A DNA stretch of 64,000 nucleotides from an uncultured Solirubrobacterales bacterium. GTDB lineage: Bacteria; Actinomycetota; Thermoleophilia; Solirubrobacterales; 70-9. Position 1 is the stretch's first letter; every line of letters begins with the position of its first letter. The position numbers and the translations under genes were made by a program. This document shows positions 9,601 to 64,000 of this stretch, piece by piece. The DNA is taken from the NCBI GenBank assembly GCA_963717495.1, contig OY970339.1, positions 2,551,798 to 2,615,797 of the forward strand, in the 5' to 3' direction. The notes beneath the pieces are model-generated. The model was not told the origin of the DNA. It did no database searches and was given only the letters and a program-made list of their open reading frames with translations.

Positions 9601-10777
9601 TCTCTATGAGTTCGATGCAACCGCCGAGCCACCCGCTTCGCACCTCATCGCCGAAAAGGTGCAAGTTCCCATTCCGGGTGGTAATGGAAGTAAGGCGTAC
9701 GGAAGTATTCTTGGCGCCAGCAATGATCTCTCTCGAATCTTCTTTGCCTCCGAAGAAGCTTCCTCCGCCGCAGAAGCTGAAGGGGCTGAGAAAGGCGAAG
9801 CAAATATCTACTTCTATAATGCTGGCGCCACCCGCTTTGTCGGTGCCCTCTCGACTGCGGACCTGGGCACCACCAACAACTACGGGAGTTCAATAAGGGC
9901 TCAGCCATTTAAGCGTACTGCACGGGTCAGTGCGGATGGCTGGTCGGCGGTATTCATGTCGAGCAGTAAAAGCACGAGCGAATCGGTGGGTTACGACAAC
10001 ACGGATGCGCTGAGCGGCGAACCCGATGCAGAGGTCTATCTCTACGATGCGAGGGCGGAAGGGCAAGCGGGGAAACTGCGTTGCGTGTCATGTAACCCTA
10101 CGGGTGCGCGGCCTCAGGGACGAGAAATTGCCAGTGGCCTTAATGGCCTACCCGGTCCCTGGGGTGCTGCCACTGTTCCCCCGTTCGAGACCCAGCTTTA
10201 CCAGTCTCGCTATCTATCTGACGATGGTAACCGAGTCTTTTTCAACAGCGTCGATGCTCTGGTTCTAGGCGATACCAACGGTAGGGAGGATGTCTATCAA
10301 TGGGAGTCGCCGGGTTCTGGGAACTGCAGTCTCCAACACTCCTCCTACACCGCTTCTTCGGAAGGCTGTCTCAACCTGATCTCCTCTGGGCAAAGCCCTG
10401 CCGACTCCCATTTTCTCGACGCTAGCCCAACCGGATCGGACGTCTTTTTCACCACCGTCGAGAGTCTCTTAGTCCAGGACTACGGCCTGATTGACGTCTA
10501 TGACGCCCGCGTTAACGGCGGTTTCCCGCCGCCACCGAACTCCGCGGCGGCCTGCGAAGGTGAAGCCTGTCAAGGCCCGCTTGAAGCGCCCAACGATCCG
10601 ACTCCAGCGTCGGCCGCCTTCCGGGGTGCCGGCAACGTCAAGGAGCCGGATAAGGCCCGCTGCGCCAAGGGCAAGGCCCGGCGCAAAGGTCGCTGCGTTG
10701 CCAAAAAACGCCACAAGCGCTCTAACGGGAGCGCTACTAAGCATCGAGCCAACGACACCCGGAGGGTAGGACGATGA
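6647..10777 (+). CDS. Giant secreted protein: NHL-type beta-propeller, 3 tandem FN3/Ig-like modules, PD40/TolB-like repeat region and a basic Cys-flanked tail
   Basis: - 1376-aa ORF with RBS aaggagag before the GTG. A signal-like segment [23 protein letters not shown] is present; GTG 6770 is an alternative start.
- Six NHL-like blades (e.g. '[18 protein letters not shown]', '[17 protein letters not shown]').
- Three ~95-aa repeats (nt ~7706-8569), each ending in YH[FYW]R[ILV]VATN.
- Repeated '[LV]S.DG..V[FV]F' PD40-like motifs.
- C-terminal '[20 protein letters not shown]'. Confidence 0.8.
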   Translation: [1376 protein letters not shown]

Positions 10778-24290: not shown

Positions 24291-25919
24291 CTACTTGAGC
24301 TCGAAGCTGGTCAGGTCCTGGCCGTAGGTCGGGTTGAAGATCACCTTGTCGAGGTCGATCGCGCTGGAGACGAAGGTCGACGTGGTCCGCGTCCCGTAAG
24401 GAGCCCACGGGGCCAGTTCCATGTAGGCCTTGTCGAGGGCGGCGTATTCGGCTTCCTGCTCGGGCCCGAGCTCTTCCGCGCCGAGTTCGGCGATTTTCGC
24501 GTTCAGCTTCGGCACGTCGATTTCGGCCAGGTTCGTGTTGTTGTTCGGCTGGATGCTTTCGCCGTCCAGCAGCGGCTGGAAGAAGTCGTTCGGGTGGGGG
24601 TAGTCCTCGAACCAGTCGACCCAGCCGGTGTCGAGATCCGGCGTCGACTGGTTGCCGAGCACGGTGAAGTAGTTGGCGGCGTTGATCACTTTCAGCTTCG
24701 TGTCGAAGCCGAGTTTCTGCAGGACGTCGTCGTAGTATTCGCCCGCTTCCCTGTTTTCCGGTTCGCTGTTGGTCCAGACCGTGATGTCGCGGTCGCCGGG
24801 ATTTGCCTTGGCGATCATTTCCTTCGCTTTCGCCATGTCGTGCGGGTAGAGGTCGAGCTTGACGTGGCCCGGCATCCCCGGTGGCAGGATCTGCTGGTTG
24901 GCGGCGAGCTGGCCGGTGTAGATCCGTTCCAGCGCGTCCGTGTCGATCGCGTAGTTGACCGCCTTGCGGACTTCGAGGTCGTCGAACGGGGTGTGCGTCG
25001 TGTTCATCCAGAAGTAGTAGTTGCTGATCGTTTTCTCGACGCGGAACTGGCTGCCCTCGTATTTGGCCTTGACTTCTGGGTAGCGGTCCGGTGGGGGCGG
25101 TGGCTGCATCCAGTCGATCCTGCCCTGTTCGACGTCGTTGACCGCGGTCGAGTCGTTGCTGACGACGTTGATCTTGATCTTGTCGAAGTGGCCGGGTTCG
25201 AGGTCCGGCATCGCCTTGCCGTTGACCTTGGCCCACTGCGGGTTGCGGGCGTATTCCCAGCCGCGGCCCGGCTGGGACTTGGTGATCATGTAAGGGCCGG
25301 TGCCGGGCGGGGGGTTGGCCGAGAGGTCTTCGTCCGGAGTGCCGGCAGGCAGCGGCGCCACGAACAGCATCCCCAGCTCGTTGCTGAAGGTGCCCCGCGG
25401 CTGCAGCAGGTGGATGACGATCTCGCCGGTCTTGTCGTCGGCTTCGATCCCGGAGATGCTGTCGCTCTTCTTTTCGGCGAACTCCGTCGCCCCGACGATG
25501 GCTTCGTAGAAGGGCGAGCCGGGGGAGCTGACCTTGAAGGTGCGCTCGAGCGTGCGGGGAAAGTCGGAGGCCTTGACCGGCTGACCGTTGGAGTATTTGA
25601 GCCCCGGGCGCAGCTGCAGCGTGTAGGTCTTGCCGCCGTCGCTGATCTTCGGCAGGCTCTTGGCTAGGCCGGGTACGACCTTGCCGCCCTCGCTGCCGTT
25701 GGCGTGGGCGTAGGTCAGCAGCGGGATGTAGGTGTTGTACATCGCCGTCCAGCCTTCCTGCGTGTAGGAGAGAGCCGGGTCGAGGAAGTCGGGGAAGGCG
25801 GAGTAGGTCCCCGTCAGGGTGCCCCCGTCGCTGGAGTTGCCGCCACCGCAGGCAGCGAGCCCAAACACCGCTACCGCTGTAGATCCGAGCACTGCCGCGA
25901 AAATGCGAACCTTCTTCAA
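24291..25919 (-). CDS. ABC transporter substrate-binding protein, family 5 (peptide/nickel)
   Basis: 542 aa with the lipoprotein-like N-terminus 'AVFGLAACGGGNSS'. TTG start overlapping the upstream MFS stop (TTGA). Confidence 0.9.
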   Translation of the reverse strand: MKKVRIFAAVLGSTAVAVFGLAACGGGNSSDGGTLTGTYSAFPDFLDPALSYTQEGWTAMYNTYIPLLTYAHANGSEGGKVVPGLAKSLPKISDGGKTYTLQLRPGLKYSNGQPVKASDFPRTLERTFKVSSPGSPFYEAIVGATEFAEKKSDSISGIEADDKTGEIVIHLLQPRGTFSNELGMLFVAPLPAGTPDEDLSANPPPGTGPYMITKSQPGRGWEYARNPQWAKVNGKAMPDLEPGHFDKIKINVVSNDSTAVNDVEQGRIDWMQPPPPPDRYPEVKAKYEGSQFRVEKTISNYYFWMNTTHTPFDDLEVRKAVNYAIDTDALERIYTGQLAANQQILPPGMPGHVKLDLYPHDMAKAKEMIAKANPGDRDITVWTNSEPENREAGEYYDDVLQKLGFDTKLKVINAANYFTVLGNQSTPDLDTGWVDWFEDYPHPNDFFQPLLDGESIQPNNNTNLAEIDVPKLNAKIAELGAEELGPEQEAEYAALDKAYMELAPWAPYGTRTTSTFVSSAIDLDKVIFNPTYGQDLTSFELK

Positions 25920-34659: not shown

Positions 34660-35076
34660 GTGGCCGACGAGCTGAGGATCGACGACCGCCTGGCGATCCC
34701 GCTGGCGGAGATCGAGCTGCGCACCAGCCGCTCCTCCGGACCGGGGGGCCAGCACGCCAACGTCACCGCCTCCCGGGTCGAAGCCGTCTTCGATGTCGCG
34801 GCCTCGCGGGCGCTGGACGAGACGCAGCGCGAGCGCCTGCTCGCTCGTACCGGCGCCACGGTCACCGCCGTCGCCCAGGACGCCCGCGGCCAGTCCCGCA
34901 ACCGCGAGCTGGCCCTGCGGCGCCTGGCTCAGAAGATCGCGGCCGGCCTCGCGACCCCGCGCCGCCGCCGTCCGACCAAGCCGACCAGGGCCTCGCGCTA
35001 CCGCCGCCTCGAACAGAAGCGCCGCCTCGGCGAACGCAAGCGTGGGCGGCGGCGACCGGGTGGGGAAGGGGAATAG
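34660..35076 (+). CDS. arfB: Alternative ribosome-rescue factor / peptidyl-tRNA hydrolase ArfB
   Basis: 138 aa with the GGQ motif 'SSGPGGQHANVTASRVE' and a basic C-terminal tail 'RRRRPTKPTRASRYRRLEQKRR'. Confidence 0.9.
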   Translation: MADELRIDDRLAIPLAEIELRTSRSSGPGGQHANVTASRVEAVFDVAASRALDETQRERLLARTGATVTAVAQDARGQSRNRELALRRLAQKIAAGLATPRRRRPTKPTRASRYRRLEQKRRLGERKRGRRRPGGEGE

Positions 35077-35642: not shown

Positions 35643-35772
35643 GGGAGCGCCGATCATACGACGCTCCCGGTCGTGCATCCGTCCAGGCTCCGTCTCCACC
35701 GCTAGGGCGTGGGTACCTGGGCGGCCTTAGCCTTGCCGGGCTTCGGTGGGCGGGAATCGAAAGGAGCATTCG

Positions 35773-36792
35773 ATGCGTTCCCTTAGAGGACACTCGGGAG
35801 TGGCGGCGTCCGCTTGCTGCGCGGCGTTCGCGGCGTTATGCCTGGTTGCCGGGCCGGCGACGGCCGCTGACGTCTACCCGGCCGGGGGTGGCACCTTTAC
35901 GGGCGGCGCCCAGGGCTGGGAAGCCACTGAAGCCAGCTGCAACGTGCCGGCCTCCTGCACCGCCTCGGGCGGGTACGACGGCGCCAACGGCAATCCGCCC
36001 GGCTCGATTGCGGCGAACACGACCATCGGCCTCAACCTGTTGGCGCTGTTCAAATCGACCGTGACCCTGCAGTCGCCGGACTTCAGCGTCACCGGCGCTG
36101 GCGACGCGACGCTGCACCTCGACCGCCAGTTCATCTCCGGCTCCCTGCTCGACCTGGCGCCGCAGGCGACTTACAGCGTCACACTGATCGACCGCACGGC
36201 GGGGACGAAATCGGAAGTCTTGACGGAGGCGATGCCAGCCGCGTCTGAATTCATCGGCAAGGACCATGCAGCGACGGTCAAAGCCGGGCATACCTACGCG
36301 CTCTCGATCAAAACGGAAACGAGCTCGACGGTTGCGGGGACGGCGCTGCTCGGGGGCACCACCATCCTCCGCTTCGACAACGTCTCGCTGACCGTCGACA
36401 CCTCGGGCGGGGGCAGTGGTGGAGGCTCCGGTGGCGGTTCTGGCGCAGGTGGCAACCTCACCGATCGGCAGCTGCGATCGCTGATCGGCGGCAGCCTGAT
36501 CGGGCCGGCGATCCTGAAGGGCAACACGATCACGGTCAAGGCCAAGTGCCCCACCAAGGTCGGGGTTACTTGTCGGATCGCCCTACGGGGGATGCTCAGC
36601 CGCAAGAAGGCCGCGACCTCGAGCCGCAAGGCCAAGGTGGCGAAGGGCAAGACCAAGAAGTTCGTCCTCCGGGTCAAGCCCAAGGGGCTGAAGAAGGTGT
36701 CCCAGAGCAAACGGCTCCTGTTCAAGGAGACGGTCCGCGCCGGCAAGGCGAAGGCGACTGTCTACAAGCGGCTGAAGCTAGTCCGCCGCTAG
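35773..36792 (+). CDS. Secreted protein with poly-Gly/Ser linker and Lys-rich C-terminal beta-module
   Basis: ATG 35773 after RBS gaaaggag. Signal peptide 'AASACCAAFAALCLVAGPATAADV', linker GGGSGGGSGGGSGAGG, and a tail 'TVKAKCPTKVGVTCRIALRG...KFVLRVKPKGLKKV...KATVYKRLKLVRR'. Confidence 0.75.
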   Translation: MRSLRGHSGVAASACCAAFAALCLVAGPATAADVYPAGGGTFTGGAQGWEATEASCNVPASCTASGGYDGANGNPPGSIAANTTIGLNLLALFKSTVTLQSPDFSVTGAGDATLHLDRQFISGSLLDLAPQATYSVTLIDRTAGTKSEVLTEAMPAASEFIGKDHAATVKAGHTYALSIKTETSSTVAGTALLGGTTILRFDNVSLTVDTSGGGSGGGSGGGSGAGGNLTDRQLRSLIGGSLIGPAILKGNTITVKAKCPTKVGVTCRIALRGMLSRKKAATSSRKAKVAKGKTKKFVLRVKPKGLKKVSQSKRLLFKETVRAGKAKATVYKRLKLVRR

Positions 36793-46783: not shown

Positions 46784-47382
46784 GCACGGAGGGCCCGGCC
46801 CCGCTCGCGCGCCTCGTCGCCGAGCTCTCGCGACTGCCGGGGATCGGCCAGCGGACCGCCCAGCGGCTCGCCTTCCACCTGCTGCGGGCCCCCGACGAAG
46901 AGGCCTTCGCGCTCGGCGACGCGATCCGCGAGATGAAGGAGAAGGTCGGGCTCTGCGAGGAGTGCTTCAACCTCGCCGAGGGGCCGCTCTGCCGGATCTG
47001 CGCCGACCAGAACCGCGACCGGGCCTCGATCTGCGTGGTCGAGGAGCCGGCCGACGTGATCCCGATCGAGCGCACCCACGAATATCGCGGCCTCTACCAC
47101 GTGCTCGGCGGCGCTCTCTCGCCGATCGACGGGGTCGACGCCCAGGACCTGAAGATCGCCGAGCTGCTGCGCCGGATCGAGCGCGGCGGCACCACCGAGG
47201 TGGTTCTGGCGACCAACCCGACCACGACCGGTGAGGCGACCGCCCTGCACATCGCCGACGAGCTGCGCGGCAAGGTCGCGGTCACCCGCCTGGCCAGCGG
47301 CCTGCCGGTCGGAGCGGACCTCGAGCACGCCGACGAGGTCACTCTCGGCAAGGCGCTCGCCGGCCGCCGCAGCCTCGATTAG
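46780..47382 (+). CDS. recR: Recombination protein RecR
   Basis: 'LPGIGQRTAQRLAFHLL' (HhH), the C4 zinc finger 'CEECFNLAEGPLCRIC' and a Toprim domain. Confidence 0.92.
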   Translation: MSTEGPAPLARLVAELSRLPGIGQRTAQRLAFHLLRAPDEEAFALGDAIREMKEKVGLCEECFNLAEGPLCRICADQNRDRASICVVEEPADVIPIERTHEYRGLYHVLGGALSPIDGVDAQDLKIAELLRRIERGGTTEVVLATNPTTTGEATALHIADELRGKVAVTRLASGLPVGADLEHADEVTLGKALAGRRSLD

Positions 47383-47479
47383 CTGCGAGCCGATTGAACA
47401 TCCGTCCTGGACGAAGATCTGCCCGCAAATAGCGGATTTCCGCGGCTCTTGCGTCCGCTGCTTTCGGGAAGGTCACAGG

Positions 47480-48208
47480 GTGGCGACCCAGCGGGATTCA
47501 GGCGACGGCTCAGACGGACGTTCGCCGGCGGGGCGGATCGCCCACGAGGTCTCCTCGCTGCAGGCCTCGCTGCTGGCCAAGCTGCGGCAGGAGCTGAACG
47601 GGGAGGAGCCCGAGCAGTTCGCCCTCGCGGCCGAGCGCCTGGCCACCGACTTCGGCTCGGTGGCGGCGACCGCGGTCGATGCCGCATACGAGCAGCAGGC
47701 GGCACCGGCGCAGACGAGCGACGAGCATCGCGAGCTGACCAGCCTCTACCAGCCGGGTCACATGCGCCGCCGTCTCGACCAGATGGCCGAGACCAACCGC
47801 CGTTACGGCCACCCCTTCGCGCTCGCCGTCTTCGACGCCTCCGGGCCGGGGACGCGCGACGGCGATGCCGGCGGCGGCCAGGAGACGGTGCTGGCGATCG
47901 TCGGCGCGGCGCTGCGCGACAGTATCCGCCTGGTCGACGAAGCCTTCCGCCTCGAGGAGGACGCGATCTGCGTCCTCGCCCCCAACCTGCGCACGGTCGA
48001 AGCGGTGCAGATGGCGGAGCGGCTGCTGGGCCAGCTGCAGGAGCTGGAGCGGGCGGGCGGTCTGCGGATCGCGGTCTCGGCCGGGGTCGTCGCCTGTCCC
48101 GAGCACGGCGCCGACGTCGATCTGCTCCTGCACAAGGCCGACGCGGCGATGTGGCGAGCGCGCGCGGTGGGGCAGCCGGTCGGCCTCGGCGCCTTGCAAG
48201 ATCGCTGA
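47480..48208 (+). CDS. Degenerate GGDEF-domain protein (active-site motif replaced)
   Basis: GGDEF-fold landmarks 'RRRLDQMAETNRRYGHPFALAVFD' and 'LLHKADAAMWRARAVG', but the GG[DE]EF position reads 'RLEEDAICVLAP'. GTG start 47480 inside track ORF 47231..48208. Confidence 0.65.
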   Translation: MATQRDSGDGSDGRSPAGRIAHEVSSLQASLLAKLRQELNGEEPEQFALAAERLATDFGSVAATAVDAAYEQQAAPAQTSDEHRELTSLYQPGHMRRRLDQMAETNRRYGHPFALAVFDASGPGTRDGDAGGGQETVLAIVGAALRDSIRLVDEAFRLEEDAICVLAPNLRTVEAVQMAERLLGQLQELERAGGLRIAVSAGVVACPEHGADVDLLLHKADAAMWRARAVGQPVGLGALQDR

Positions 48209-49260: not shown

Positions 49261-49331
49261 GCTTGACAGAGCCATATCCGGCGCACAACTCTGCCGCCGA
49301 AAGGGTTCAGTCAACGAAAGGAATCAATCGC

Positions 49332-51269
49332 ATGAGCGATACGACGAGTGCGCCGCAGAGGGGCGTGCGCGCAATCAGGGCCGGGCTTCTCGCCTTCGCC
49401 CTGGCGGCACTGGCAGCGATCGGACTTGCCTCCCAGGCGAACGCCGATTTCACCAGCGGCAAATGTGGAGGAGTGAACACGAACGCGAACGGCGCCAGCT
49501 TCGCGAAAGGCGCGCAGGAAAGCTTCAACTCCTACTTCAAAAGCTTCTATTGCGCCGGCAGCGGGCTCGGCGTCGCATACAACGCGAACGGCAGCGGCGC
49601 CGGTATCGAAGGCGCCCAGCTGCGCGAAGGCACCTCCCGTTTCTGGGGTAGCGACGATCCCCCCACGCCGGCTCAGGTGGCGCTGATGAACTCCGGCGCG
49701 AAAAAAGAAACCGTCGAAGGCAAACCGAAAGTCGTTCCGGACGGGGTTGAAGGCAACGAGGGCAAAATCCACGTATACCCGGTCGCCGCGGGGGCGATTG
49801 CCCCTCTGGTCAACTTCCCGCTGGGCTGCGACCCCGAACAGCTGGCTGACAAATACCGCACCGTCTCGGCTGCGCAGATCACCGGCAACGCCGCGCTGAA
49901 AGGCATTCTGCGCGTTCGCTTCACCAAGGTCCAATACGAGAAAGTCTGGGCCGGGGTGGAAAACGTCAAATGGAGTGAAGCTTTCCCCGAACTCACGGGT
50001 GCCCCCTGCGAAGTGCCGATCATCCGCGTCGTGCGCTTCGACAAGTCCGGCACGACCTTCGGGTTCAAGGACTACCTGCGCACGATCAACCCCGCACGGG
50101 GCTGGACCACCACCTTCGAGAGTGGGACCGGCGAAATCGGCAACCGCGAATGGCCCAACGCCGTTTTCGGCCCCCGCGCCGACTGCCCCGGCAAAGAAGG
50201 CCCCGGCTCCCAGGAAGACAGCATCGACCACCTCACCTCGGGTTGCGAAAACGGCAACGGCGAACTGGTCAAAAAAGTGATCGCCACCGATGGTTCCATC
50301 GGCTACGCGGATATCGCCACCGCCCGCAACGCGAGCCCGACCCTCGCGGTCAACGCCGCGCTGACCGAGGCCCCGACCACTCCTTACTGGACCCAGGTCC
50401 AGAACGGGTCGATCGGTGTCGGCTCCGCGCAGGAAGGGGAAGGCAAAGGGTTCACCGAGCCGACCCTCGACGAAGCCAACGGCTTCAAGACGACGGCGGC
50501 CACGACGCCGGGTCAGAAGGGAGCCAACTGCATCTCGGGGGCCATCTTCCAGAACACCCCCGCGAACAGCTTCGGCAACTGGGCGAATACCAGCGGCGTG
50601 AACGCGGCCTCGGGCTACGGGATCTGCACGCTGACCTACGCGCTCGTGTTCGACGATAACTCGGCGGTGTTCAAAAACACCCCCGAAGAGGAGAGCAAAG
50701 CTCGTACCGTCAAGGACTATGAGGAAGGCATCGTCACCGACGCGGCTCAGGCTCAGCTCCTCGCCGCGGACTATGCGCCTCTGCCCCCGTCGCTGCTGAC
50801 GCTCGCCCGGGTCGCGGTCGCACAGATCGGCTGGAACAAGGCCGGTTCCGGCGGCGGTGGTGGTGGTGGTGGCGGAACCACCCCCGCTGTCACTCCTGCC
50901 GCCGGTGGCGGTCCCGCTCCGGTGGTCATCAGCAACCAGTTCTCGGTTCCGCGCAAGACGATCTCGTCGAAAACCGGCAGCGCGACCTTCTCGGTCAAGC
51001 TGCCCGGCGCCGGCAAGCTCGACGTCGTCGGCACCGCCAAGTCCGGCAAAAAGACGATCAAAGTCGGACAGGTCGTCCTCACCGCCGGCAAAGCCGGCAC
51101 CTACTCGGTGACCCTCAAGCCCAGCGGCGCGGCAAAGCAGCTGCTGAGCAAAAACGGCTCGCTGAAGGTCAGCCTCAAGTTCACCTTCTCGCCCACCGGC
51201 GGGACGGCGAAGAGCTCGAACAGCTCGGTGACCCTGAAGCTGGTCAAAAAAGCCGGGAGCAACGCGTAG
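49332..51269 (+). CDS. Secreted PstS-family (phosphate-binding-like) protein fused to a poly-Gly linker and Lys-rich C-terminal beta-module
   Basis: ATG 49332 after gaaaggaa. Signal peptide 'LLAFALAALAAIGLASQANA'. PstS-like 'NGASFAKGAQESF', 'NANGSGAGIEGA', 'FWGSDDPPT', 'YPVAAGAIAPLVNFP' and 'GSIGYADIA'. G9 run 'GSGGGGGGGGGTT'. Tail 'FSVKLPGAGKLDVVG...SLKVSLKFTFSPTGG'. Confidence 0.75.
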   Translation: MSDTTSAPQRGVRAIRAGLLAFALAALAAIGLASQANADFTSGKCGGVNTNANGASFAKGAQESFNSYFKSFYCAGSGLGVAYNANGSGAGIEGAQLREGTSRFWGSDDPPTPAQVALMNSGAKKETVEGKPKVVPDGVEGNEGKIHVYPVAAGAIAPLVNFPLGCDPEQLADKYRTVSAAQITGNAALKGILRVRFTKVQYEKVWAGVENVKWSEAFPELTGAPCEVPIIRVVRFDKSGTTFGFKDYLRTINPARGWTTTFESGTGEIGNREWPNAVFGPRADCPGKEGPGSQEDSIDHLTSGCENGNGELVKKVIATDGSIGYADIATARNASPTLAVNAALTEAPTTPYWTQVQNGSIGVGSAQEGEGKGFTEPTLDEANGFKTTAATTPGQKGANCISGAIFQNTPANSFGNWANTSGVNAASGYGICTLTYALVFDDNSAVFKNTPEEESKARTVKDYEEGIVTDAAQAQLLAADYAPLPPSLLTLARVAVAQIGWNKAGSGGGGGGGGGTTPAVTPAAGGGPAPVVISNQFSVPRKTISSKTGSATFSVKLPGAGKLDVVGTAKSGKKTIKVGQVVLTAGKAGTYSVTLKPSGAAKQLLSKNGSLKVSLKFTFSPTGGTAKSSNSSVTLKLVKKAGSNA

Positions 51270-51387: not shown

Positions 51388-53424
51388 ATGAACGATCAGC
51401 ACGTAGACCAATCGGCGCGCAAGCGCTCGAGCCGCCTCCCTGTGCGGCCCCCCCAGGTGAACTTCAAGGACGCCGCCGGCGCCTTCGGCGAGCGACTCGC
51501 CGCGATCGGGCGGTGGTTCCTCAAAGACCCGATGAACACGATGCTGATCGCCGCCTCGATCTTCCTCTCCGCCACCTTCTTCATCCTCCTCGACCAGATC
51601 CAGCCCAGCTCGGCCGGCGAAAAGGTGCCGCTGAGCAAGATCTTCAAGCTGACCGAGGACAAGCAGGTCGAGGTCGCGACCCTGCTCGACCAGGACTCGC
51701 GGGTGGTGATCGACACCGCCAACGGGCGCACCGTCTACGCTGCCTATCCGAGCTCGGACGCGCAGACCAACTCGCTGGTCAAAGCCCTGGCCGAAAGCGG
51801 CGCCGTGGTCACGATCGACCAGCAGGCCGATATCCCCTCGAAGCAGATCATGGTCCAGTTCCTGATCCCGATCCTGCTGCTGGTCTGCCTCTTCGTCCTC
51901 TTCACCCGGCTCGGCCAGGACGGCGGCGCCGGGGCCTTCGCCGGCTTCTCGAAATTCACCGGCAAAGGGCGCAAGAAAGGCGCCGAGTCCCCCGATCGGA
52001 CCACCTTCGACGACGTCGCCGGCGCCGGCGAAGCCCTGGCCGAGCTGCGCGAGATCCGCGACTACCTGGCCAACCCGGGCAAATATGCGGCGGTCGGGGC
52101 GCGGGCGCCGAAGGGCGTGCTGCTGGTCGGCCCCCCCGGCACCGGCAAGACGCTGCTGGCGAAGGCAACGGCGGGGGAGGCCGAGGCGACCTTCTTCTCA
52201 CTCTCCGGCTCGGACTTCGTCGAGTCGCTGGTCGGGGTCGGTGCCGCCCGTGTCCGCGACCTCTTCGCCAAGGCCCGCAAACAGGCGCCGGCGCTGATCT
52301 TCATCGACGAGCTCGACGCCGCCGGGCGCAAGCGTGGCGCCGGCGTCGGCCAGGGCAACGACGAGCGCGAGCAGACGCTGAACGCGATGCTGGTCGAGAT
52401 GGACGGCTTCGGCGGCGACGCCGGCGTCGTCGTCCTCGGCGCCACCAACCGTCCCGACATCCTCGACCCGGCGCTGCTGCGACCGGGCCGCTTCGACCGC
52501 CAGGTGACCGTCGACGTGCCCGACGTCCACGGCCGCCTCGACATCCTCACCCTGCACTGCAAGGGGCGGCCGCTGGCCCCGGGCACCTCGCTCGACGAGG
52601 TCGCGAAACTGACCTCGGGCTTCAGCGGCGCCGAGCTCGCCAACGTAATCAACGAGGCGGCGCTGCTGACCGTGCGCGAGGGCCGGGTCGAGATGGACCA
52701 GGCGACGCTGGAGGAGGCGATCGACCGGGTGATTGCCGGCCCGGCTCGCAAAAACCACGTGCTCAGCGAGGAGGAACGCTGGACGATCGCGATCCACGAG
52801 TCCGCCCACGCCGTGGTGATCCGCTCCAGCGGCCAGAAGATGACCACCCAGAAGGTCTCGATCGTCGCCCGCGGGCGCCAGATGGGGACCGCCGCGAACA
52901 TGCTCACCGACCGCGACGCGGTGGTCATGCAGGAGCCCGACATGCGCCGCCACCTGATCGCGATCGTGGCCGGTTTCGCGGCCGAGCGGATCGAGTTCGG
53001 CGTCGCCTCGACCGGCGTCCACGACGACCTCCACGCCGCCACCGGCCTGGCCCGGATGATGGTCACCTCCTACGGGATGTCGCCGGCGCTGGGCCCGGTG
53101 ACGATCGGCGAGAAAGCCGGCGAGGTCTTCCTCGGCGCCTCGCTGCAGGACATGGGCCAGGTCGCGCAGGCGACGCTGGAGACGATCGACAGTGAGGTCG
53201 AGCGGCTGGTCGGCGACTCGGTCAACCAGGCCGAGGCGATCCTCAGGACCAACTGGAGCGCCGTCTACGAGACGGCCAACGCGCTGATCGAGCACGAGAC
53301 GCTCTCCGGCCACGCGCTCGACGCCGTGCTTGCCTCGGTCCAGCCGACTCTGCTCGACTTCGGCACCAAGGTCGACGCGGAGGTGGAGACGCGCGAGTTC
53401 GAGGCCCAGTCGGAAGGTGAGTAG
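51388..53424 (+). CDS. ftsH: ATP-dependent zinc metalloprotease FtsH
   Basis: '[18 protein letters not shown]' (Walker A), 'IIFIDELDA', the SRH '[19 protein letters not shown]' and the zinc motif 'HESAHAVV'. Confidence 0.95.
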
Positions 53425-55039
53425 AGCGGCGAAAACGGCGCTGGCCTCTCTCGCGGCGCTGCTGATCGCGGCGATCGGCTCAGGCTCTGCCCGCGCCGAC
53501 GCCCTGATCTGGCGCCTGGAGCAGCCGGCACCGCCGTCTGGCTCCCCCTTCAAAGTGCCGCTCGGAGCGCCGGGAGATCTCTCCTTCTGGGCCCCGAACC
53601 GCGGCTTGCTGACGGTCGAGGGCAACAGCACGATCCCGCGTGGCATCTTCAGCTGGAACGGCCAGAGCTGGCACCAGCTGGCGACCGTCTGTGGCGGGCC
53701 AGGCGACAGCGCGCGGATTGCCTGGGCCGGTCCCGACGAGTTCTGGGTGATCAGCGAACCAAGCCTGCCGCGCTCCGGCGCGGGCCTCGCCCTCTGTCGC
53801 TTCAAGGGCGGCCAGGTGGTCGGCTCCTGGAGCACCCGGGTCGACGCCGCCGACCCGTTCCGGCAGATGCTCTCGGCAACCTGCAACGGGCCGGGCGACT
53901 GCTGGTTCGGCGGTGTGGGATCTCAGGACGCCCTCGGCACCCGCATTGGCGCCTTCCACCTCCACTGGAATGGGTCCGACCTCGAATCGGTCTACGGCCC
54001 GCAGGGACGAGGGGTCAGCGACATGCAGTTCCACCAGGGCCGTCTCTATGAGTCCACCTATGTCGGGCGGGGTCCTGAAAACCGCGGCGAAGCGGTAGAG
54101 CTCGCCGAAACGGAGGCGGTGCCGAGGCTGATCCACACGGTCAGCGGCCATGCCTTCGCCAGTGATCCCTTCACGCCCGCCGCCCTGCCGGGCGTGCCCG
54201 GCGATGGCACCGAGCTGCTCGGCCTCGACAGCGACGGCACCGATCTCTGGGCGGTCGGCGGCGGGGCCGCGTCGGGGCCCTCGGCGCCGGCGGAAAAATC
54301 GGTGGCGCGTCCGCCCTTCGCCGCCAGGCTGGTCGCCGGTTCCTTCCAGGAGCTGGAGCTGACCGGCGGCGAATTCGGGCTCACCGACCGCCTCGGCGAC
54401 GTCGCCGCCATGCGCGGCAGCGAAGACGCGATCGCCACGGTGGTCCCCTTCGCCGACCGTCGCAGCACCAACAGCAAGGCGACCGTGGCCCGGATCGCGC
54501 CCGACGGCACGGCGACGACCACGCGCCTGCCGGCCTCGGGGGCGGGGCGCGGCAGCGCCGCCCGGGTCGCCTGCCCGGCCGTGAACGACTGCTGGATGGT
54601 CACCTGGGGCGGCTGGCTCTTCCACTACAGCGACGGCACTCCACTCGCGATCGACACCGACCCCAATTTCCAGGGCACGATCGATTTCCGCCCCAACGAG
54701 GCGGCCGAACAGTTCGTCCCCGATGCGCTTCCGGTCGACGATTCGCAGCTGTTCGCCCCGGCTCCGGTCGAAGACGCGAAAGCGAAGGAAGCGCGCATCC
54801 GCAAGCTGGCGCCGCTGCTGAAGCGGATCCGCTCGCGGCTTCAGGGGCTCGCGCTGACGGTCAGCTTCACCGTCACCCGGCGAGCGCGGGTCGCGCTGAT
54901 CGCCAAGCGCGGCGGCCGCACCGTCGCCCGCACGCCCAAGCGCACGTTCGGGCCCGGCCGCCACTCCCTCCTGCTCCACCTCAGCCGCGACCGCTACCCG
55001 ACCAAGCTGGCCTTCGACACCAAGGAGGTGAAGCGGTGA
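53417..55039 (+). CDS. Secreted beta-propeller-like protein with Arg/Lys-rich C-terminal module
   Basis: GTG 53417 overlaps the ftsH stop by 8 nt (start uncertain). Signal peptide 'ALASLAALLIAAIGSGSARA'. Trp/Gly-rich repeats ('FSWNGQSWHQL', 'HLHWNGSDLE', 'MVTWGGWLFHY'). Tail 'LALTVSFTVTRRARVALIAKRGGRTVARTPKRTF'. Confidence 0.7.
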   Translation: MSRAAKTALASLAALLIAAIGSGSARADALIWRLEQPAPPSGSPFKVPLGAPGDLSFWAPNRGLLTVEGNSTIPRGIFSWNGQSWHQLATVCGGPGDSARIAWAGPDEFWVISEPSLPRSGAGLALCRFKGGQVVGSWSTRVDAADPFRQMLSATCNGPGDCWFGGVGSQDALGTRIGAFHLHWNGSDLESVYGPQGRGVSDMQFHQGRLYESTYVGRGPENRGEAVELAETEAVPRLIHTVSGHAFASDPFTPAALPGVPGDGTELLGLDSDGTDLWAVGGGAASGPSAPAEKSVARPPFAARLVAGSFQELELTGGEFGLTDRLGDVAAMRGSEDAIATVVPFADRRSTNSKATVARIAPDGTATTTRLPASGAGRGSAARVACPAVNDCWMVTWGGWLFHYSDGTPLAIDTDPNFQGTIDFRPNEAAEQFVPDALPVDDSQLFAPAPVEDAKAKEARIRKLAPLLKRIRSRLQGLALTVSFTVTRRARVALIAKRGGRTVARTPKRTFGPGRHSLLLHLSRDRYPTKLAFDTKEVKR

Positions 55040-59524: not shown

Positions 59525-59875
59525 CTACGCGATCCGTTCCGGGGTGAAGCGGTAGCCGATGCCGAAATGAGTGTGGATGTAGCGCCAGTCGGGGGCGGCC
59601 AGCTCCAGCTTGCCGCGCACCTTGCGCACGAGAACGTCGACCGAGCGGTCCCGGCGTGACATCTCCCCGCCCCACATCAGCTCGTAGACCTCGGGCCGCT
59701 GGACGACGCTGTCGAGCCGCTTCGCGAGCAGGAAGAAGAGCTCGAACTCGCGCACGGTGAAGCCGACCCGCCTGTCGCCGACCAGCACCTGCAGTTCGGC
59801 CGGCCGGATCTCGAGGTTGGCCAGGCGCATCACGCCCCCGCTGGGCGCGGCGGAGGTCGGCGGTTCGGCCAGCAT
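59525..59875 (-). CDS. Stand-alone OmpR/PhoB-type winged-helix DNA-binding protein (no receiver domain)
   Basis: 'LQVLVGDRRVGFTVREFELFFLLAKRLDSVVQRPEVYELMWGG...VDVLVRKVRGKLE...IHTHFGIGYRF' is the trans_reg_C signature. The start is uncertain (59875 or 59830; the track ORF extends to 59983). Confidence 0.75.
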   Translation of the reverse strand: MLAEPPTSAAPSGGVMRLANLEIRPAELQVLVGDRRVGFTVREFELFFLLAKRLDSVVQRPEVYELMWGGEMSRRDRSVDVLVRKVRGKLELAAPDWRYIHTHFGIGYRFTPERIA

Positions 59876-59979
59876 CGAGCCGTACCCTTTCCCGGCCGCG
59901 CGCCCAGACGGTGAAGGGCCTGTTTCGATTTGGAGAAGATTTGGTGAACCGACCCAGGAGGGCCTCCCGGGTGCGCTCG

Positions 59980-62007
59980 TCAATCGCTGGCGAAGGTGAC
60001 CGTGGTGGCGGCGTGGAGGCGCCTGCCACCGCCGGCGGGGGTGAACGTGACTTTGACCCGGGCCCGCAGCTCCTGCCCGCGCTTCAGCGCCGCCCGGTAG
60101 CGAGGGGCGGCCCGCATGACTACGTGGAAGCTTCCCTTGCCGCGAGCCCGCGTCTGGCGGGCGGCGATCTCCCGCACCCGCGGCGGTTTGCCGCGCCGCG
60201 TCGTCGCCACCGCCTTGATCGCGCCCGCCGCCGGAACCGAGATGGTCAGCACGATCACGCCACCGGCTTTGGCCTGCGCCCGAACGAAGACCCGGGCCCC
60301 CGCCCGGCTTTCCTTGACCGAGCTGGCGCCGCCAGCCGTACGCGCCGCGGTGGGCGCCCCTTCGATTGGCTGGGGGAGCCGGGTCGCGACGAAGGCGTCG
60401 GCGCGCTGGTTAGCGTCGCCGCGAAAGAGGTTGCCGGCGAAGGAGCTGAAGGCGACTCGGGACCCGTCGCCGGATATCGCGACACCGTCCTGGGCGCCGC
60501 CGTCGACGTCGCCACCGGAGATCGAGTGGGTGGCCCGCTCCAGCGTGCGGCTCTGGAGGTCGACCACGTAGAGCTCCTGGGGGCCGGGTACCGCGCGCGG
60601 GGCACCGGTCAGTTGCAGGGCGGGCAGGACAAATCTGGTGCGGCTGGTGGTCATCGCGAGAAAGCGACCACTTGACGACAGCGCGATCGAGCCCAGCGGC
60701 AGGTTGGTCGCGAGGTCGCCCGTCGAGGTATCGCGGGTCAGCTCGACGGTGCCCTGCTTACGACTCACGCCCGGCCGCATGTCGGTGAGATAGAGGTCGA
60801 GACCCGGGCCGCTCTGGACGACCGGACGGGGGCCGGCGCCGGTGAGGAAGGCGACCGTGTAGCCGTCGCCACTGAGCGCCGGCAGCTGCGAGCCGATGTC
60901 GGCGCGGTTGGCCTCCTGGTCGGTCAGCGGGCCGAGGCAGGGACCGGTCGCGCTGGGGCTGAACACGGTTTCCATGCCAGGGTTTTCCATTTCCATCTGG
61001 CGGCAGACCGGGTCATCCGGATCGGCGAGGCCGGTGATCCGGCGCGTCGGCTCCGTGGGCCCGAACGGGGCGCGGCGCCAGAGGTAGTAGTTGAAGCTGG
61101 GGTCCGGGTTCTCGCCCGCGAGGAGACGGGTCTGGACACTGGCGTTGCCGCCGGTCCAGGCGACGGTGGTGCCATCGGCGCTGAGTGCGGCGCCGATGGC
61201 ACCACCGGAGGGCTCGGCGCTCATCAGCCCCGTTTCCGCGTCGCGCACAGCGGTGACCAGGGTCGTCGTCTGCCCGGTCAGGTCACGGACGAAGATCTGC
61301 CCGGCGGCCGTTTCGACTCCCGGCCTGGCGGGCAGGTCGGAAACAGCCTCGGTGCGAAAGGCGATCCTGCCGCCGTCGGCGCTGATCGCCACCCCGGGGG
61401 ATACTTCAGCGCCAGGATCGCCCCCGGCGAGCGGGACAGCCGGAGGCGCGTAACTCGCCGGCGCTTCGCCGCCGCCGCGGGCCGAGACCAGGGTGTAGGC
61501 GCCGGGTTCGTTCGGCGAACGGCTCATATCCCTGCGGTAGACGTCGACGTTGTCGTTCCCGTCGGCGGGCACCAGCCGCTGGCCGGTCGAGAAGGCGACG
61601 AAGCGTCCGTCGGCGCTGATCGAGGGGTTCGAGGCGCCGCGGCGGAGGAAGGCGTTGTCGCTTTCGCGGAAGAGGTCCCCGTCGGCGACTTTTGCCAGCA
61701 TCCTCGTCTGCAGGTCGAAGCGGAAGACGCCGCCGACGCGGTAATCGCCGGCCGGGTCGGGATCGTCGTCGGCGAAGAAGTTGCGGGCTCGGGTCTGCAT
61801 CGCGACGTAGCGCCCGTCGGCGGAGATCGCCGCGAATTTGGTCGTGTCGTCGCCCTGTTCGAGGCGGCCGTAGTCGGCGGATATCAGCTGCGCGCCCGCC
61901 GCTCCGTCGACGGCGTTGCCGAAGAAGGCGCCGGCGCCGGCGGGCACGGCAAGCCCGAGAAGGGCCAGGACGGCAGACGTGAGATGGGCCAGTGCTTGGC
62001 GGCTCAT
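59980..62007 (-). CDS. Secreted PD40/TolB-like beta-propeller protein with Arg/Lys-rich C-terminal module
   Basis: Signal 'LTSAVLALLGLAVPAGAGA'. At least 7 repeats of '[IL]S[AG]DG..[VI]A[FWM]' (e.g. ISADGRYVAMQT, ISADGRFVAFST, LSGDGYTVAFLT, ISGDGSRVAFSS). Tail 'LTISVPAAGAIKAVATT...RARVKVTFTPAGGG'. Confidence 0.8.
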   Translation of the reverse strand: MSRQALAHLTSAVLALLGLAVPAGAGAFFGNAVDGAAGAQLISADYGRLEQGDDTTKFAAISADGRYVAMQTRARNFFADDDPDPAGDYRVGGVFRFDLQTRMLAKVADGDLFRESDNAFLRRGASNPSISADGRFVAFSTGQRLVPADGNDNVDVYRRDMSRSPNEPGAYTLVSARGGGEAPASYAPPAVPLAGGDPGAEVSPGVAISADGGRIAFRTEAVSDLPARPGVETAAGQIFVRDLTGQTTTLVTAVRDAETGLMSAEPSGGAIGAALSADGTTVAWTGGNASVQTRLLAGENPDPSFNYYLWRRAPFGPTEPTRRITGLADPDDPVCRQMEMENPGMETVFSPSATGPCLGPLTDQEANRADIGSQLPALSGDGYTVAFLTGAGPRPVVQSGPGLDLYLTDMRPGVSRKQGTVELTRDTSTGDLATNLPLGSIALSSSGRFLAMTTSRTRFVLPALQLTGAPRAVPGPQELYVVDLQSRTLERATHSISGGDVDGGAQDGVAISGDGSRVAFSSFAGNLFRGDANQRADAFVATRLPQPIEGAPTAARTAGGASSVKESRAGARVFVRAQAKAGGVIVLTISVPAAGAIKAVATTRRGKPPRVREIAARQTRARGKGSFHVVMRAAPRYRAALKRGQELRARVKVTFTPAGGGRRLHAATTVTFASD

Positions 62008-64000
62008 CCGACCCGCACCCTGCGCTCGAGCTGGACGGTGTTGCCGGCGTGGTCGCGGGCGCTGACGAGGAGGCGGTAGGTGCCGGCCTTCGCATAGGCG
62101 TGGCGGACCGTCTTGACGATCGGCTTCTTCTTGCCCTTGCCGCCCTTCTTGTGTTTGGCGGTGGAGATCACAGTGCCGCCGCCACCCTTCTCCTGGCCCT
62201 TTCCACCGCCCGTTCCGTCGCCGAAGAGGACCTTCGCCGAGCTGCTCTTGAGGCCGGAGGTCCCGAGCCTGCCACCGTCGGTAATCGAGACGGCGAGGCG
62301 CTGACCGTGCCGCCGCACAGTCACCTTCGGCGGCCGCCGGTCGATCCGTAGCACGGCATTGCGGGAGCCGGTCTGCTGGCCGGCGTCGTCGATTGCGAAG
62401 ACCTGGATGCGGTGGCGGCCGTCGCCGATCTCACCGCTGCGCAGCAGCGCGAAGAGCCGTTTCGTTTCCTTGCCGACCGGCTCGTCGTCGACGCTGACCG
62501 AGTAGTCGACGTGGCCGATCGCGTTGACCGCGGCGGCCCAGTGGATCGCGACCTCGGCCTGGCGCCTCCAGCCCGCCGGAGTCTGCACGAAGAAGGGGTT
62601 GGGAGGAGCGTTGACGATTGCGGCCGCGACCTGCGTGTTGGCGCCGCTGCCCTGGGTCCAGGCGACGATCGCGTCGCCGAGCCCGGAGCCTCCCATCCGC
62701 ACTCCGCCGACGGCACCGCCCAGCGGTGCGCTCAGCCCGGCCGGATCGACCACGCCGTCGGCCCGGCGCTCCTGGACCCCGACCGCGCCGGCGCCGCCGC
62801 GCAGTTCGCGCCAGGCGGCGACCGCGGCGCCGGTTTCGGAGAAGTCGACCTGGGGGTCGCCGGCGACGGAGCTCGCGCCTTCGTCGAGCCGCAGCACGCT
62901 GCCGACTTTGTCGTTATCACCGGTCCCGAGCAGCGTCGCCGAGTCGCTGCCGAAGCCGGCCACGAAGGCACCGTTGGGCTCGACGCCGATGCTCGGCACA
63001 CCCAGCCCGGCCCGGACGCCGCCGTCGGCCAAGCGGGCGCCGGCGAAGGCCGCGGCGCCGGTGGCAAAGGCGTCGGGCATCTCGTTGACGAAGAGACGCG
63101 GCGCGGTCAGCTTGCTCGACTGGCCCGGCTGCTGGCGCAGCGCCACGGCGGCCTGGCCGAAGCCGCCGACGTCGAGCGAGAAGGCGTCGGCGGGCCCGCG
63201 CAGCGGCACCCCTTCCAAGCTCGAGGGGCTGACCTGGAGGGGGATGCCGACGGTGGTCCCGAACAGTCGCCGAGCCCAGACGCGGTCGACGAATTCGTCA
63301 TCGGGCTCCTGCCAGGCGACGACGCCGTTGCCCTGGACGTCGATCCCGATCCGCGGTCCCGTGGCCTCGGTTGGCAGCCGCAGCGGCGCCGCCGGGTTGC
63401 GGTTGACCGGACTGCCGAGCGGCGACCAGAGCCGGTTGTTGTAGCGGGCGGCACGCACGCTGGCGCTGACGTAGCCGGGCGGGTTGGCGGCGCTGGTGTC
63501 GGTGACGACGAGATAGGCGAGATACGCCTGCCCGCCGGCATTCATCGCCAGGTCGGGAAAAGACGAGGTCGCCTCGCCGACGTTGAAGTCGACCGGCACC
63601 GGGGGCGAGAAGCCGCTCGCGCCCGGGTCGAGACCGGCCGAGAACATGCGGTCGCTGCCGACCCCGAACTCCTGCACCCAGGTGACCAGCAGGCGCCCAC
63701 GGTTGCCGGCCGCGATCCGCGGCCAGCTCGAGTCGAACGCCTGCCCAACGTCGATCCGCAACGGCGCGGTCCAGGCGTTGCCGTCGAAGCGGGTGACAAA
63801 AACATGGTTGCGCCCGTCCGCTTTTTTCAGATAGACGACACCACCGCTTCCGTCTTCGGCCATCGCCGCATCCGTCACTTCGACCAGGTCGGCACTGGGC
63901 CCCTCGATCAGGTGCGTGTCGGAGATTTCAGCACCGGCGGCAGCGGGCCAGACGAGCAGGAAGAGGCCGACCGCGGCGACTGGCAGGAAGCGAGGGCGCA
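62004..64000 (-). CDS. Large secreted protein (5' end beyond the window) with repeated Trp-containing beta-repeats, an FN3/Ig-like domain and a PKD-like C-terminus
   Basis: - The track ORF starts at 63878, but the frame stays open to 64000. I translated it by hand as ...RPRFLPVAAVGLFLLVWPAAAGAEISDTHLIEGPSADLVEVTDAAM, a signal peptide, so the true start lies beyond the window.
- The C-terminal 'VRHAYAKAGTYRLLVSARDHAGN' is PKD-like.
- There is a 4-nt overlap with the downstream gene. Confidence 0.75.
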   Translation of the reverse strand, partial: RPRFLPVAAVGLFLLVWPAAAGAEISDTHLIEGPSADLVEVTDAAMAEDGSGGVVYLKKADGRNHVFVTRFDGNAWTAPLRIDVGQAFDSSWPRIAAGNRGRLLVTWVQEFGVGSDRMFSAGLDPGASGFSPPVPVDFNVGEATSSFPDLAMNAGGQAYLAYLVVTDTSAANPPGYVSASVRAARYNNRLWSPLGSPVNRNPAAPLRLPTEATGPRIGIDVQGNGVVAWQEPDDEFVDRVWARRLFGTTVGIPLQVSPSSLEGVPLRGPADAFSLDVGGFGQAAVALRQQPGQSSKLTAPRLFVNEMPDAFATGAAAFAGARLADGGVRAGLGVPSIGVEPNGAFVAGFGSDSATLLGTGDNDKVGSVLRLDEGASSVAGDPQVDFSETGAAVAAWRELRGGAGAVGVQERRADGVVDPAGLSAPLGGAVGGVRMGGSGLGDAIVAWTQGSGANTQVAAAIVNAPPNPFFVQTPAGWRRQAEVAIHWAAAVNAIGHVDYSVSVDDEPVGKETKRLFALLRSGEIGDGRHRIQVFAIDDAGQQTGSRNAVLRIDRRPPKVTVRRHGQRLAVSITDGGRLGTSGLKSSSAKVLFGDGTGGGKGQEKGGGGTVISTAKHKKGGKGKKKPIVKTVRHAYAKAGTYRLLVSARDHAGNTVQLERRVRVG

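Follow-up and report, generated by a model that had tools for sequence, protein, structure and literature searches.

The stretch of DNA considered here, referred to below as the window, is a 64,000-nucleotide segment of contig OY970339.1 (assembly GCA_963717495.1, positions 2,551,798 to 2,615,797) of an uncultured Solirubrobacterales bacterium. It encodes four secreted proteins with strongly basic C-terminal tails: a PstS-like protein with a PBP_like_2 domain (protein A), a PD40 propeller protein (protein B) and two proteins without known domains, described as 339 (protein C) and 540 amino acids (aa) long (protein D). A first-pass annotation of the sequence had described these tails as four copies of one Lys/Arg-rich module for retention or sorting at the cell surface, and had named profile searches, structure prediction and a profile-profile comparison as means of checking it. 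All four tails were found at the positions given there, and the quoted peptides translate exactly. By its related loci, the window belongs to the Solirubrobacterales (Thermoleophilia, Actinomycetota); protein D as query yielded 69 loci, nearly all of them from soil metagenome-assembled genomes of Solirubrobacterales, together with the cultured Patulibacter, and an identical copy of D is present on a 2.72-Mb contig (P0031).

Proteins A, B, C and D all possess a signal-peptide-like N-terminal segment and an acidic body (isoelectric point, pI, 4.8–6.2), while their last 100–115 aa are basic in every case, with a pI of 10.9–12.0 and a net charge of +17 to +32. Poly-Gly linkers precede two of the four tails, as the first-pass annotation had noted. 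In a crude list of about 45 likely genes of the window, a net charge of at least +16 over the last 100 aa was found only in these secreted proteins, in the 624-aa protein H and in one cytosolic protein with a GGQ motif. The latter (34660–35076, plus strand; net +18) is alone among the clearly cytosolic proteins of the window in having a C-terminus of comparable basicity; it contains the sequence SGPGGQHANV, looks like an ArfB-type peptidyl-tRNA hydrolase and is unconnected to the domain described below, but its existence means that a basic tail by itself is not diagnostic. Two secreted giants of 1376 and 981 aa have a basic stretch in their last 50 aa and terminate in short Cys-flanked polybasic peptides, present as quoted earlier, with no folded basic domain. 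That secreted proteins pair an acidic body with a strongly basic C-terminus, as H and the two giants also do, is a real pattern in the window; it has been reached via several unrelated sequences and may be a habit of the lineage.

Sequence comparisons clearly indicate that the tails of A and B are homologous copies of one domain of about 113 aa. They form the only pair found with blastp (25% identity over 79 aa), and the comparison of profiles, built from 48–58 orthologous tails each drawn from related loci, gave an hhalign probability of 96.7% for this pair (E-value 4.3e-10, 90 columns) and no more than 1.3% for all other pairs, including two control tails. In six-frame searches of the window, the hidden Markov model (HMM) of the A family found B (E-value 3e-10) and the HMM of the B family found A (E-value 1.7e-8), each of them finding only the other; the reciprocal scores were 41.0 and 34.2 bits, compared with maxima of 7.4 and 9.9 bits among 1000 composition-preserving shuffles of the target tail. 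These controls rule out a compositional artefact as the source of the A–B match. A broad family profile, built from the best 150 hits of the library search described below, recognised A with an E-value of 1.7e-38 and B with an E-value of 6.5e-21.

No such relationship was found for the tails of C and D, which were matched neither by A or B, nor by the broad profile, nor by each other (hhalign probability at most 0.6%; 0.6% for the family versus D and 0.2% for the family versus C), and the HMM scores of both tails lay within the shuffled distributions. The use of secondary structure derived from AlphaFold2 models in hhalign still gave no significant alignment of C with the family. The 93 matches of the C tail are all C orthologues of 300–360 aa or fragments of them, none lying on other proteins; the D tail was seen on D orthologues only, and comparison of it with the PDB and Pfam gave no match.

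AlphaFold2 modelling of the A tail, using an alignment of A-type tails and the B tail (alignment A1), resulted in a mean predicted local distance difference test score (pLDDT) of 79.8 and a predicted template modelling score (pTM) of 0.69. The predicted structure contains strands at residues 8–15, 20–27, 31–41, 44–55 and 59–65, a helix at 69–78 and strands at 80–91 and 97–106, corresponding to an immunoglobulin (Ig)-like sandwich of seven strands and one helix. The proposed check with AlphaFold and Foldseek thus gave an Ig-like model, and the Foldseek search of the PDB yielded generic Ig-like sandwiches only (V-set Ig, complement MG domains, GbpA and Fsx1; best E-value 2.8e-3, TM-scores 0.45–0.58). 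The model of the C tail, made with 53 orthologues, scored higher (pLDDT 93.4, pTM 0.83) and comprised a helix at residues 7–13, strands at 18–25, 28–34, 43–50, 61–65 and 70–77, a helix at 79–87 and strands at 90–99 and 102–114; past the lead-in helix, the order is five strands, a helix and two strands, as in A. The PDB matches of the C model are likewise generic (best E-value 2–3e-3 over the two models) and overlap with those of A, including Fsx1 (7p4l), GbpA (2xwx) and the MG domains of C3 and C5.

The predicted structures bear directly on the first-pass proposal that all four tails, C and D included, are divergent copies of one ancestral module. The equal element order in the models of A and C and their overlapping Foldseek lists agree with it, as do the charge, linker and position that the tails have in common. 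Weak matches of the C HMM on family members also fall in the structurally expected register (median offset +8.5, about +10 being expected from the structures), but the family members are not mutually independent, and the support is therefore weak, a coincidence having odds of about one in ten. Against these points stand the profile comparisons and shuffled controls, the confinement of the C and D tails to their own orthologues, and the fact that Ig-like sandwiches with such an element order are common, the likeness of C to A being one of predicted element order; common ancestry of all four tails is, on this evidence, unlikely. The opposite suggestion, that the likeness is a mere compositional bias of Lys/Arg-rich and β-rich sequence, holds for C and D in relation to the others, but the scores of A and B far above their shuffled maxima, and 236 library clusters at an E-value of 1e-10 or below, make it exceedingly improbable as a general explanation. 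The single module of the first-pass annotation is accordingly reduced to the A/B pair, which passed the profile-profile comparison named there, C and D showing no similarity in it; the claimed conservation of element order extends to A and C in the predicted models, while D shares only charge and position. The tail of C may represent a very remote or a convergent version of the A/B device. Judging from sequence comparison, the basic C-termini of D and of the giants, the latter short and polybasic, are separate and not copies of the domain.

The extent of the A/B family was assessed by an exhaustive HMMER search of 1.84 billion cluster representatives with a profile made of the A-type tails and the B tail. 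The family is large, with matches in 3,533 clusters (50% identity) at an E-value of 1e-3 or below, 236 at 1e-10 or below and 8 at 1e-30 or below. Among the best 150 hits, the carrier proteins range from about 200 to 1,400 aa, and the C-terminus lies within 15 aa of the domain end in 134 of the 139 full-length matches. The family consensus can be written as PSNxF...G..tLtV.vPGaG.l..vATA...(basic loop)..v.....AG.v.LtLKPS.AAk..Lrk.GkLkV.l.vTFTPtGG.....t..VTLKl.k.k, with a K/R cluster at the end; the tails of A and B agree with it at the E-values given above for the broad profile, and those of C and D do not. In the A tail, the landmarks are the 'SNQF' lead-in, the PGAG turn, the 'LKPS' motif with the helix, the 'TFSPTGG' hairpin and the 'LKLVKK' end, and 52 orthologous A tails were found in the related loci. 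The B tail, for which 48 orthologous tails were collected, has neither the PSNxF lead-in nor the polybasic end.

Statistics on 134 copies gave a median domain length of 113 aa, a median net charge of +23 (range +8 to +45) and a median pI of 12.0 (minimum 9.9). The proportion K/(K+R) varies from 0 to 1 and the basic residues are scattered over many columns, which indicates that the charge is conserved and not the residue. Conserved motifs without basic residues are also present, namely PSNxF (93 of 134 copies), PGxG and TPTGG. At least three of the last eight residues are K or R in 110 of the 134 copies, and a hydrophobic run of 15 residues or more was found in none of them. Gly (21%), Pro (19%) and Thr (12%) are abundant in the 30 aa preceding the domain, and the passenger bodies of at least 150 aa (n = 88) are acidic in 99% of cases, with a median pI of 4.6.

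Searches of the tails and of 40 diverse copies against Pfam and NCBIfam, the latter at E-values up to 1, revealed no model that matched the domain consistently, the PDB sequence search returned only compositional matches to tau (E-value above 0.1), and a literature search found no description of an A/B-type domain. The domain is thus a family absent from Pfam, NCBIfam and the PDB, and counts as a new family in the established category of C-terminal domains for surface anchoring or sorting. A word-indexed search with the broad alignment found nearly only A orthologues, low-complexity words having swamped the candidates. A scan of viral contigs gave 19 motif matches, none of which was confirmed, and the domain was not found on plasmids with tblastn.

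Two peculiarities were observed within the family. Three library matches (P0167, P0174 and P0252) represent a subfamily with two or three tandem copies, the last of which ends in a hydrophobic and not in a basic sequence (...YYGLLIIL or YYGLFVTQ) and which contains 'ESAWK' and 'LWVTYQPT'; this subfamily may represent a branch with another mode of anchoring. Gene calls in public assemblies often treat the A-type tail as a 'hypothetical protein' of its own (77–167 aa) that starts in or just past the poly-Gly linker (P0001–P0014), and the A gene is broken at the linker in several related loci. Such split calls are probably due to frameshift or assembly errors, or to mis-called starts, at the G-rich linker.

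The passengers of the domain are diverse. Among 95 full-length members, Pfam searches found PBP_like_2 (13) and PKD (6), RTX repeats, propellers of the Vgb_lyase, SBBP, DUF5122 and LDL-receptor types, as well as TSP3, TIG, Big_13, the N domain of purple acid phosphatases, Peptidase_M36, trypsin, GDSL lipases and β-helices. NCBIfam models assigned to the same members include PstS-like proteins (24), choice-of-anchor D and Q, M36 metallopeptidase families named as T9SS- (type IX secretion system), myxosortase- and rhombosortase-dependent, ExeM, ScyF (PEP-CTERM) and MtsC (MYXO-CTERM). To judge by these family assignments, proteins of the passenger types end in an anchoring or sorting signal in other phyla, and here they have this domain in its stead. 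At least two carriers, a PBP_like_2 protein and a DUF5122 propeller protein, are encoded in one 21-kb locus of the cultured Patulibacter americanus DSM 16676. A recurrent module for surface retention or sorting can therefore be upheld as an idea for the A/B type, which occupies the very C-terminus of numerous unrelated secreted proteins, in the position of a sorting signal and with its charge kept; sequence does not support its extension to C and D. The features discussed are listed in Table 1.

Table 1. Positions of the tailed proteins, their parts and related features (window coordinates unless locus L064 of Patulibacter americanus is given)
Feature	Position	Strand	Description
Protein A	49263-51269	+	PBP_like_2 domain, weak PstS similarity
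A body	49332-50840	+	Signal peptide at aa 24-61 (ends AxA, without lipobox) and PBP_like_2 / weak PstS-like domain; pI 5.3
A linker	50841-50921	+	Flexible; G12, then Thr/Pro/Ala/Gly-rich stretch, between PBP-like body and domain; (GGT)n run at 50856-50872
A tail	50922-51266	+	A-type basic C-terminal domain (predicted Ig-like), formed by the final 115 aa of the PstS-like protein; aa 555-665 matched by the family HMM
Protein B	59980-62007	-	PD40 propeller
B body	60313-62007	-	Signal peptide and PD40 (TolB-like) propeller repeats, PF07676 (E-value 1.6e-8); pI 4.8
B tail	59983-60312	-	B-type copy of the A domain, last 110 aa of the PD40 protein; Arg-rich
Protein C (339-aa)	35746-36792	+	Without known domain
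C tail	36445-36789	+	Lys-rich C-terminal β-sandwich (predicted AlphaFold2 fold) behind (GGGS)n linker; net +32
Protein D (540-aa)	53330-55039	+	Without known domain
D tail	54803-55036	+	Arg-rich C-terminal segment of about 78 aa; unrelated to A/B or C by sequence comparison
End of 1376-aa protein	10640-10774	+	Short polybasic Cys-flanked end (CAKGKARRKGRC...); not a folded domain copy, no HMM match
End of 981-aa protein	13642-13716	+	Short polybasic end (CGKGRKGKAKAKR...); basic tail
P. americanus carrier	L064 5200-7512		PBP_like_2 protein
P. americanus carrier	L064 1722-5216		DUF5122 propeller protein

Several known systems resemble the A/B-type domain in one respect or another. The C-terminal domain (CTD) of T9SS substrates of Bacteroidota (Por_Secre_tail; PF18962, TIGR04183) is also a C-terminal β-sandwich of about 80–110 aa, found behind a linker on many unrelated secreted proteins with an N-terminal Sec signal, and the passengers overlap, e.g., M36 peptidases and choice-of-anchor domains. 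However, neither PF18962 nor TIGR04183 matched the 40 diverse copies or the four window proteins at E-values up to 1, and the A/B-type domain differs in being extremely basic with a K/R cluster at its end. The Actinomycetota hosts are not known to have a T9SS or an outer membrane. None of PorU/V, SprA and GldKLMN turned up in the scanned open reading frames of the window, the sequence covered being 64 kb of the genome and pieces of about 21 kb from relatives.

Functionally, the closest parallels are the GW modules of Listeria InlB and Ami and the SLH, CWB2, LysM, WxL and SLAP domains, which provide C-terminal non-covalent retention of Sec-exported proteins, the mechanism proposed below. The GW fold is SH3-like, unlike the predicted Ig-like model obtained here, and the A/B-type domain usually occurs as a single copy and not as a repeat array. 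Pfam models of GW (PF13457), SLH, LysM, CWB2, WxL and SLAP matched neither the tails, nor the 40 copies, nor the 95 full-length members, and NCBIfam likewise gave no match for the tails and the 40 copies. GW modules, too, have a basic character, and teichoic acids hold them in place (PMC4010754, PMC7155027, PMC3415414). The sorting signals of the LPXTG/sortase, PEP-CTERM/exosortase, GlyGly-CTERM/rhombosortase and MYXO-CTERM types share with the domain the position, the promiscuity of passengers and the terminal basic cluster, but these tripartite signals consist of a motif, a hydrophobic helix and a basic cluster in about 25–35 aa, whereas the domain is some 113 aa long and, as predicted, folded. 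A sorting signal of the transmembrane type is ruled out by the lack of hydrophobic runs in all 134 copies. The statement of the first-pass annotation that the tails contain no classical anchor was therefore borne out, models of LPXTG/transmembrane-type signals, SLH, GW, LysM and the T9SS CTD all remaining unmatched. On the best reading of these analogies, the domain would work most like wall-binding modules of the GW/SLAP/SLH type and looks most like the T9SS CTD, but it should be assigned to none of them, since all profile tests fail and the hydrophobic helix is missing.

On balance, the A/B-type domain is somewhat more probably than otherwise a non-covalent, electrostatic anchor of the cell surface. 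A carrier protein would be exported by the Sec pathway via its N-terminal signal peptide; the basic domain, in its folded form, would then bind an anionic component of the envelope, non-covalently and largely by charge, the candidate ligands being anionic lipids of the membrane or a polyanionic glycopolymer linked to the wall, and the acidic passenger would stay tethered at the cell surface on the flexible linker. For protein A, a protein of the PBP type, the domain would stand in for the lipid anchor of the ordinary solute-binding proteins of the same organism: the SBP_bac_5 protein encoded at 24291–25919 (minus strand) has a classic lipobox, LAAC, whereas protein A has a signal-peptidase-I site (AxA) and no lipobox. 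Solirubrobacterales are monoderm, and Actinomycetota are reported as Gram-positive. Without a lipid anchor, in a cell without an outer membrane, protein A needs another tether, and this need, together with the conservation of charge, makes the electrostatic anchor the best reading. A precedent is offered by the GW modules of Listeria InlB, whose charge-based, non-covalent retention is due to teichoic acids (PMC4010754, PMC7155027). Some observations weigh against the proposed anchor. No fusion to a peptidoglycan hydrolase occurs among the families listed for the 95 full-length members and phage lysins with the domain were not found, although either would have been the classic signature of a wall-binding module; and the non-charged motifs (the PSNxF lead-in, PGxG and TPTGG) could reflect recognition by a dedicated machine and not the simple needs of folding.

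These motifs are also among the points that would favour a C-terminal sorting signal for a dedicated export or attachment machine, cleaved or covalently processed in the way that T9SS CTDs are by PorU/PorV. The size, the Ig-like fold class, the extreme C-terminal position and the linker are as in T9SS CTDs, and the partner families depend on sorting systems elsewhere. Such a role nevertheless appears improbable: the 40 diverse copies matched neither Por_Secre_tail nor any other sorting-signal model at E-values up to 1, the hosts, being Actinomycetota and reported as Gram-positive, have no outer membrane to be crossed, the N-terminal Sec signals are already there, and no candidate for a processing enzyme was seen beside the genes in an unsystematic look at about 20 kb per locus. 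A more specific form of the idea, in which the domain would be the tag of an undiscovered sorting or attachment system of Thermoleophilia, a monoderm analogue of T9SS CTD/PorU with an enzyme that reads PSNxF, PGxG and TPTGG and either cuts the domain or attaches the passenger to the wall, and with the C-type tail as a second tag, must be considered quite improbable. The extreme, position-independent positive charge can also be read as an affinity for polyanions outside the cell (extracellular DNA, acidic exopolysaccharide, polyphosphate, clay or humic surfaces), so that exo-enzymes and binding proteins would be fixed in the matrix or on soil particles and not on the wall of the producer. The soil origin of nearly all hits is consistent with this, and the presence of glycosyltransferase and GGDEF proteins in the window suggests matrix production controlled by cyclic diguanylate (c-di-GMP); but a binding protein of the PBP type would profit little from fixation away from the cell, and the parallel with choice-of-anchor and sortase-dependent proteins points to the cell's own surface, which leaves external binding a minor possibility. 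Electrostatic anchoring on the producing cell is thus the preferred interpretation.

The proteins proposed above as a source of matrix are a cellulose-synthase-like family-2 glycosyltransferase (GT2) with a C-terminal PilZ domain (3350–5281, minus strand) and a GGDEF protein (47231–48208, plus strand); their presence suggests c-di-GMP-controlled exopolysaccharide synthesis as a possible source of ligand for basic surface domains. The body of protein A passed the Pfam threshold for PBP_like_2 (PF12849, E-value 8e-11; 42.6 bits, cutoff 27) and failed that of the PstS model TIGR00975 (55.6 bits, curated cutoff 205), so that the designation 'PstS-like' is a statement on the superfamily and not a call of orthology. 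The body of protein C (35746–36444, plus strand, about 190 aa) had no match in Pfam or NCBIfam and shows high conservation among its metagenomic orthologues, which number more than 90 and one of which is annotated as 'collagen-like protein' because of the (GGGS)n linker only.

The genes A, FtsH, D, E, a regulator, B and H form a block that is syntenic over the 69 loci. The stop codon of D overlaps with the GTG start of the gene encoding the 1491-aa protein E (GTGA, 55036–55039), and in locus L061 (9911–16150) D and E form a single open reading frame of 2080 aa with the D tail inside. At the least, D and E are therefore coupled in translation, and the position of the D tail is not C-terminal in every case. 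On the opposite strand, the genes of H (62004–63878), B and a 152-aa protein are arranged head-to-tail with overlapping stop and start codons (59525–63878). Protein H shows a weak match to Big_13 and has a PKD-like end 'HAYAKAGTYRLLVSARD' with a Lys-rich insertion (net +16 over the last 100 aa), and the sole domain of the 152-aa protein is a winged helix of the OmpR/PhoB type (Trans_reg_C). The coding regions of the two giants (6647–13719, plus strand) share four bases (10774–10777); NHL, fn3 and PhoD_N/purple-acid-phosphatase-N-like domains were recognised in the 1376-aa protein.

The feature reported in the first-pass annotation is thus real and useful, although it was over-extended. Solirubrobacterales are among the most abundant soil Actinomycetota, and to our knowledge the display of proteins on their surface is essentially unstudied. 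The family model would allow better prediction of protein localisation in Solirubrobacterales genomes, and it would explain the 'hypothetical proteins' of about 100 aa that are split off the ends of these genes in public gene calls. As a small, highly basic and, as predicted, folded tag, the domain is a conceivable handle for surface display or wall binding, and its occurrence in cultured Patulibacter makes the proposed function directly testable.

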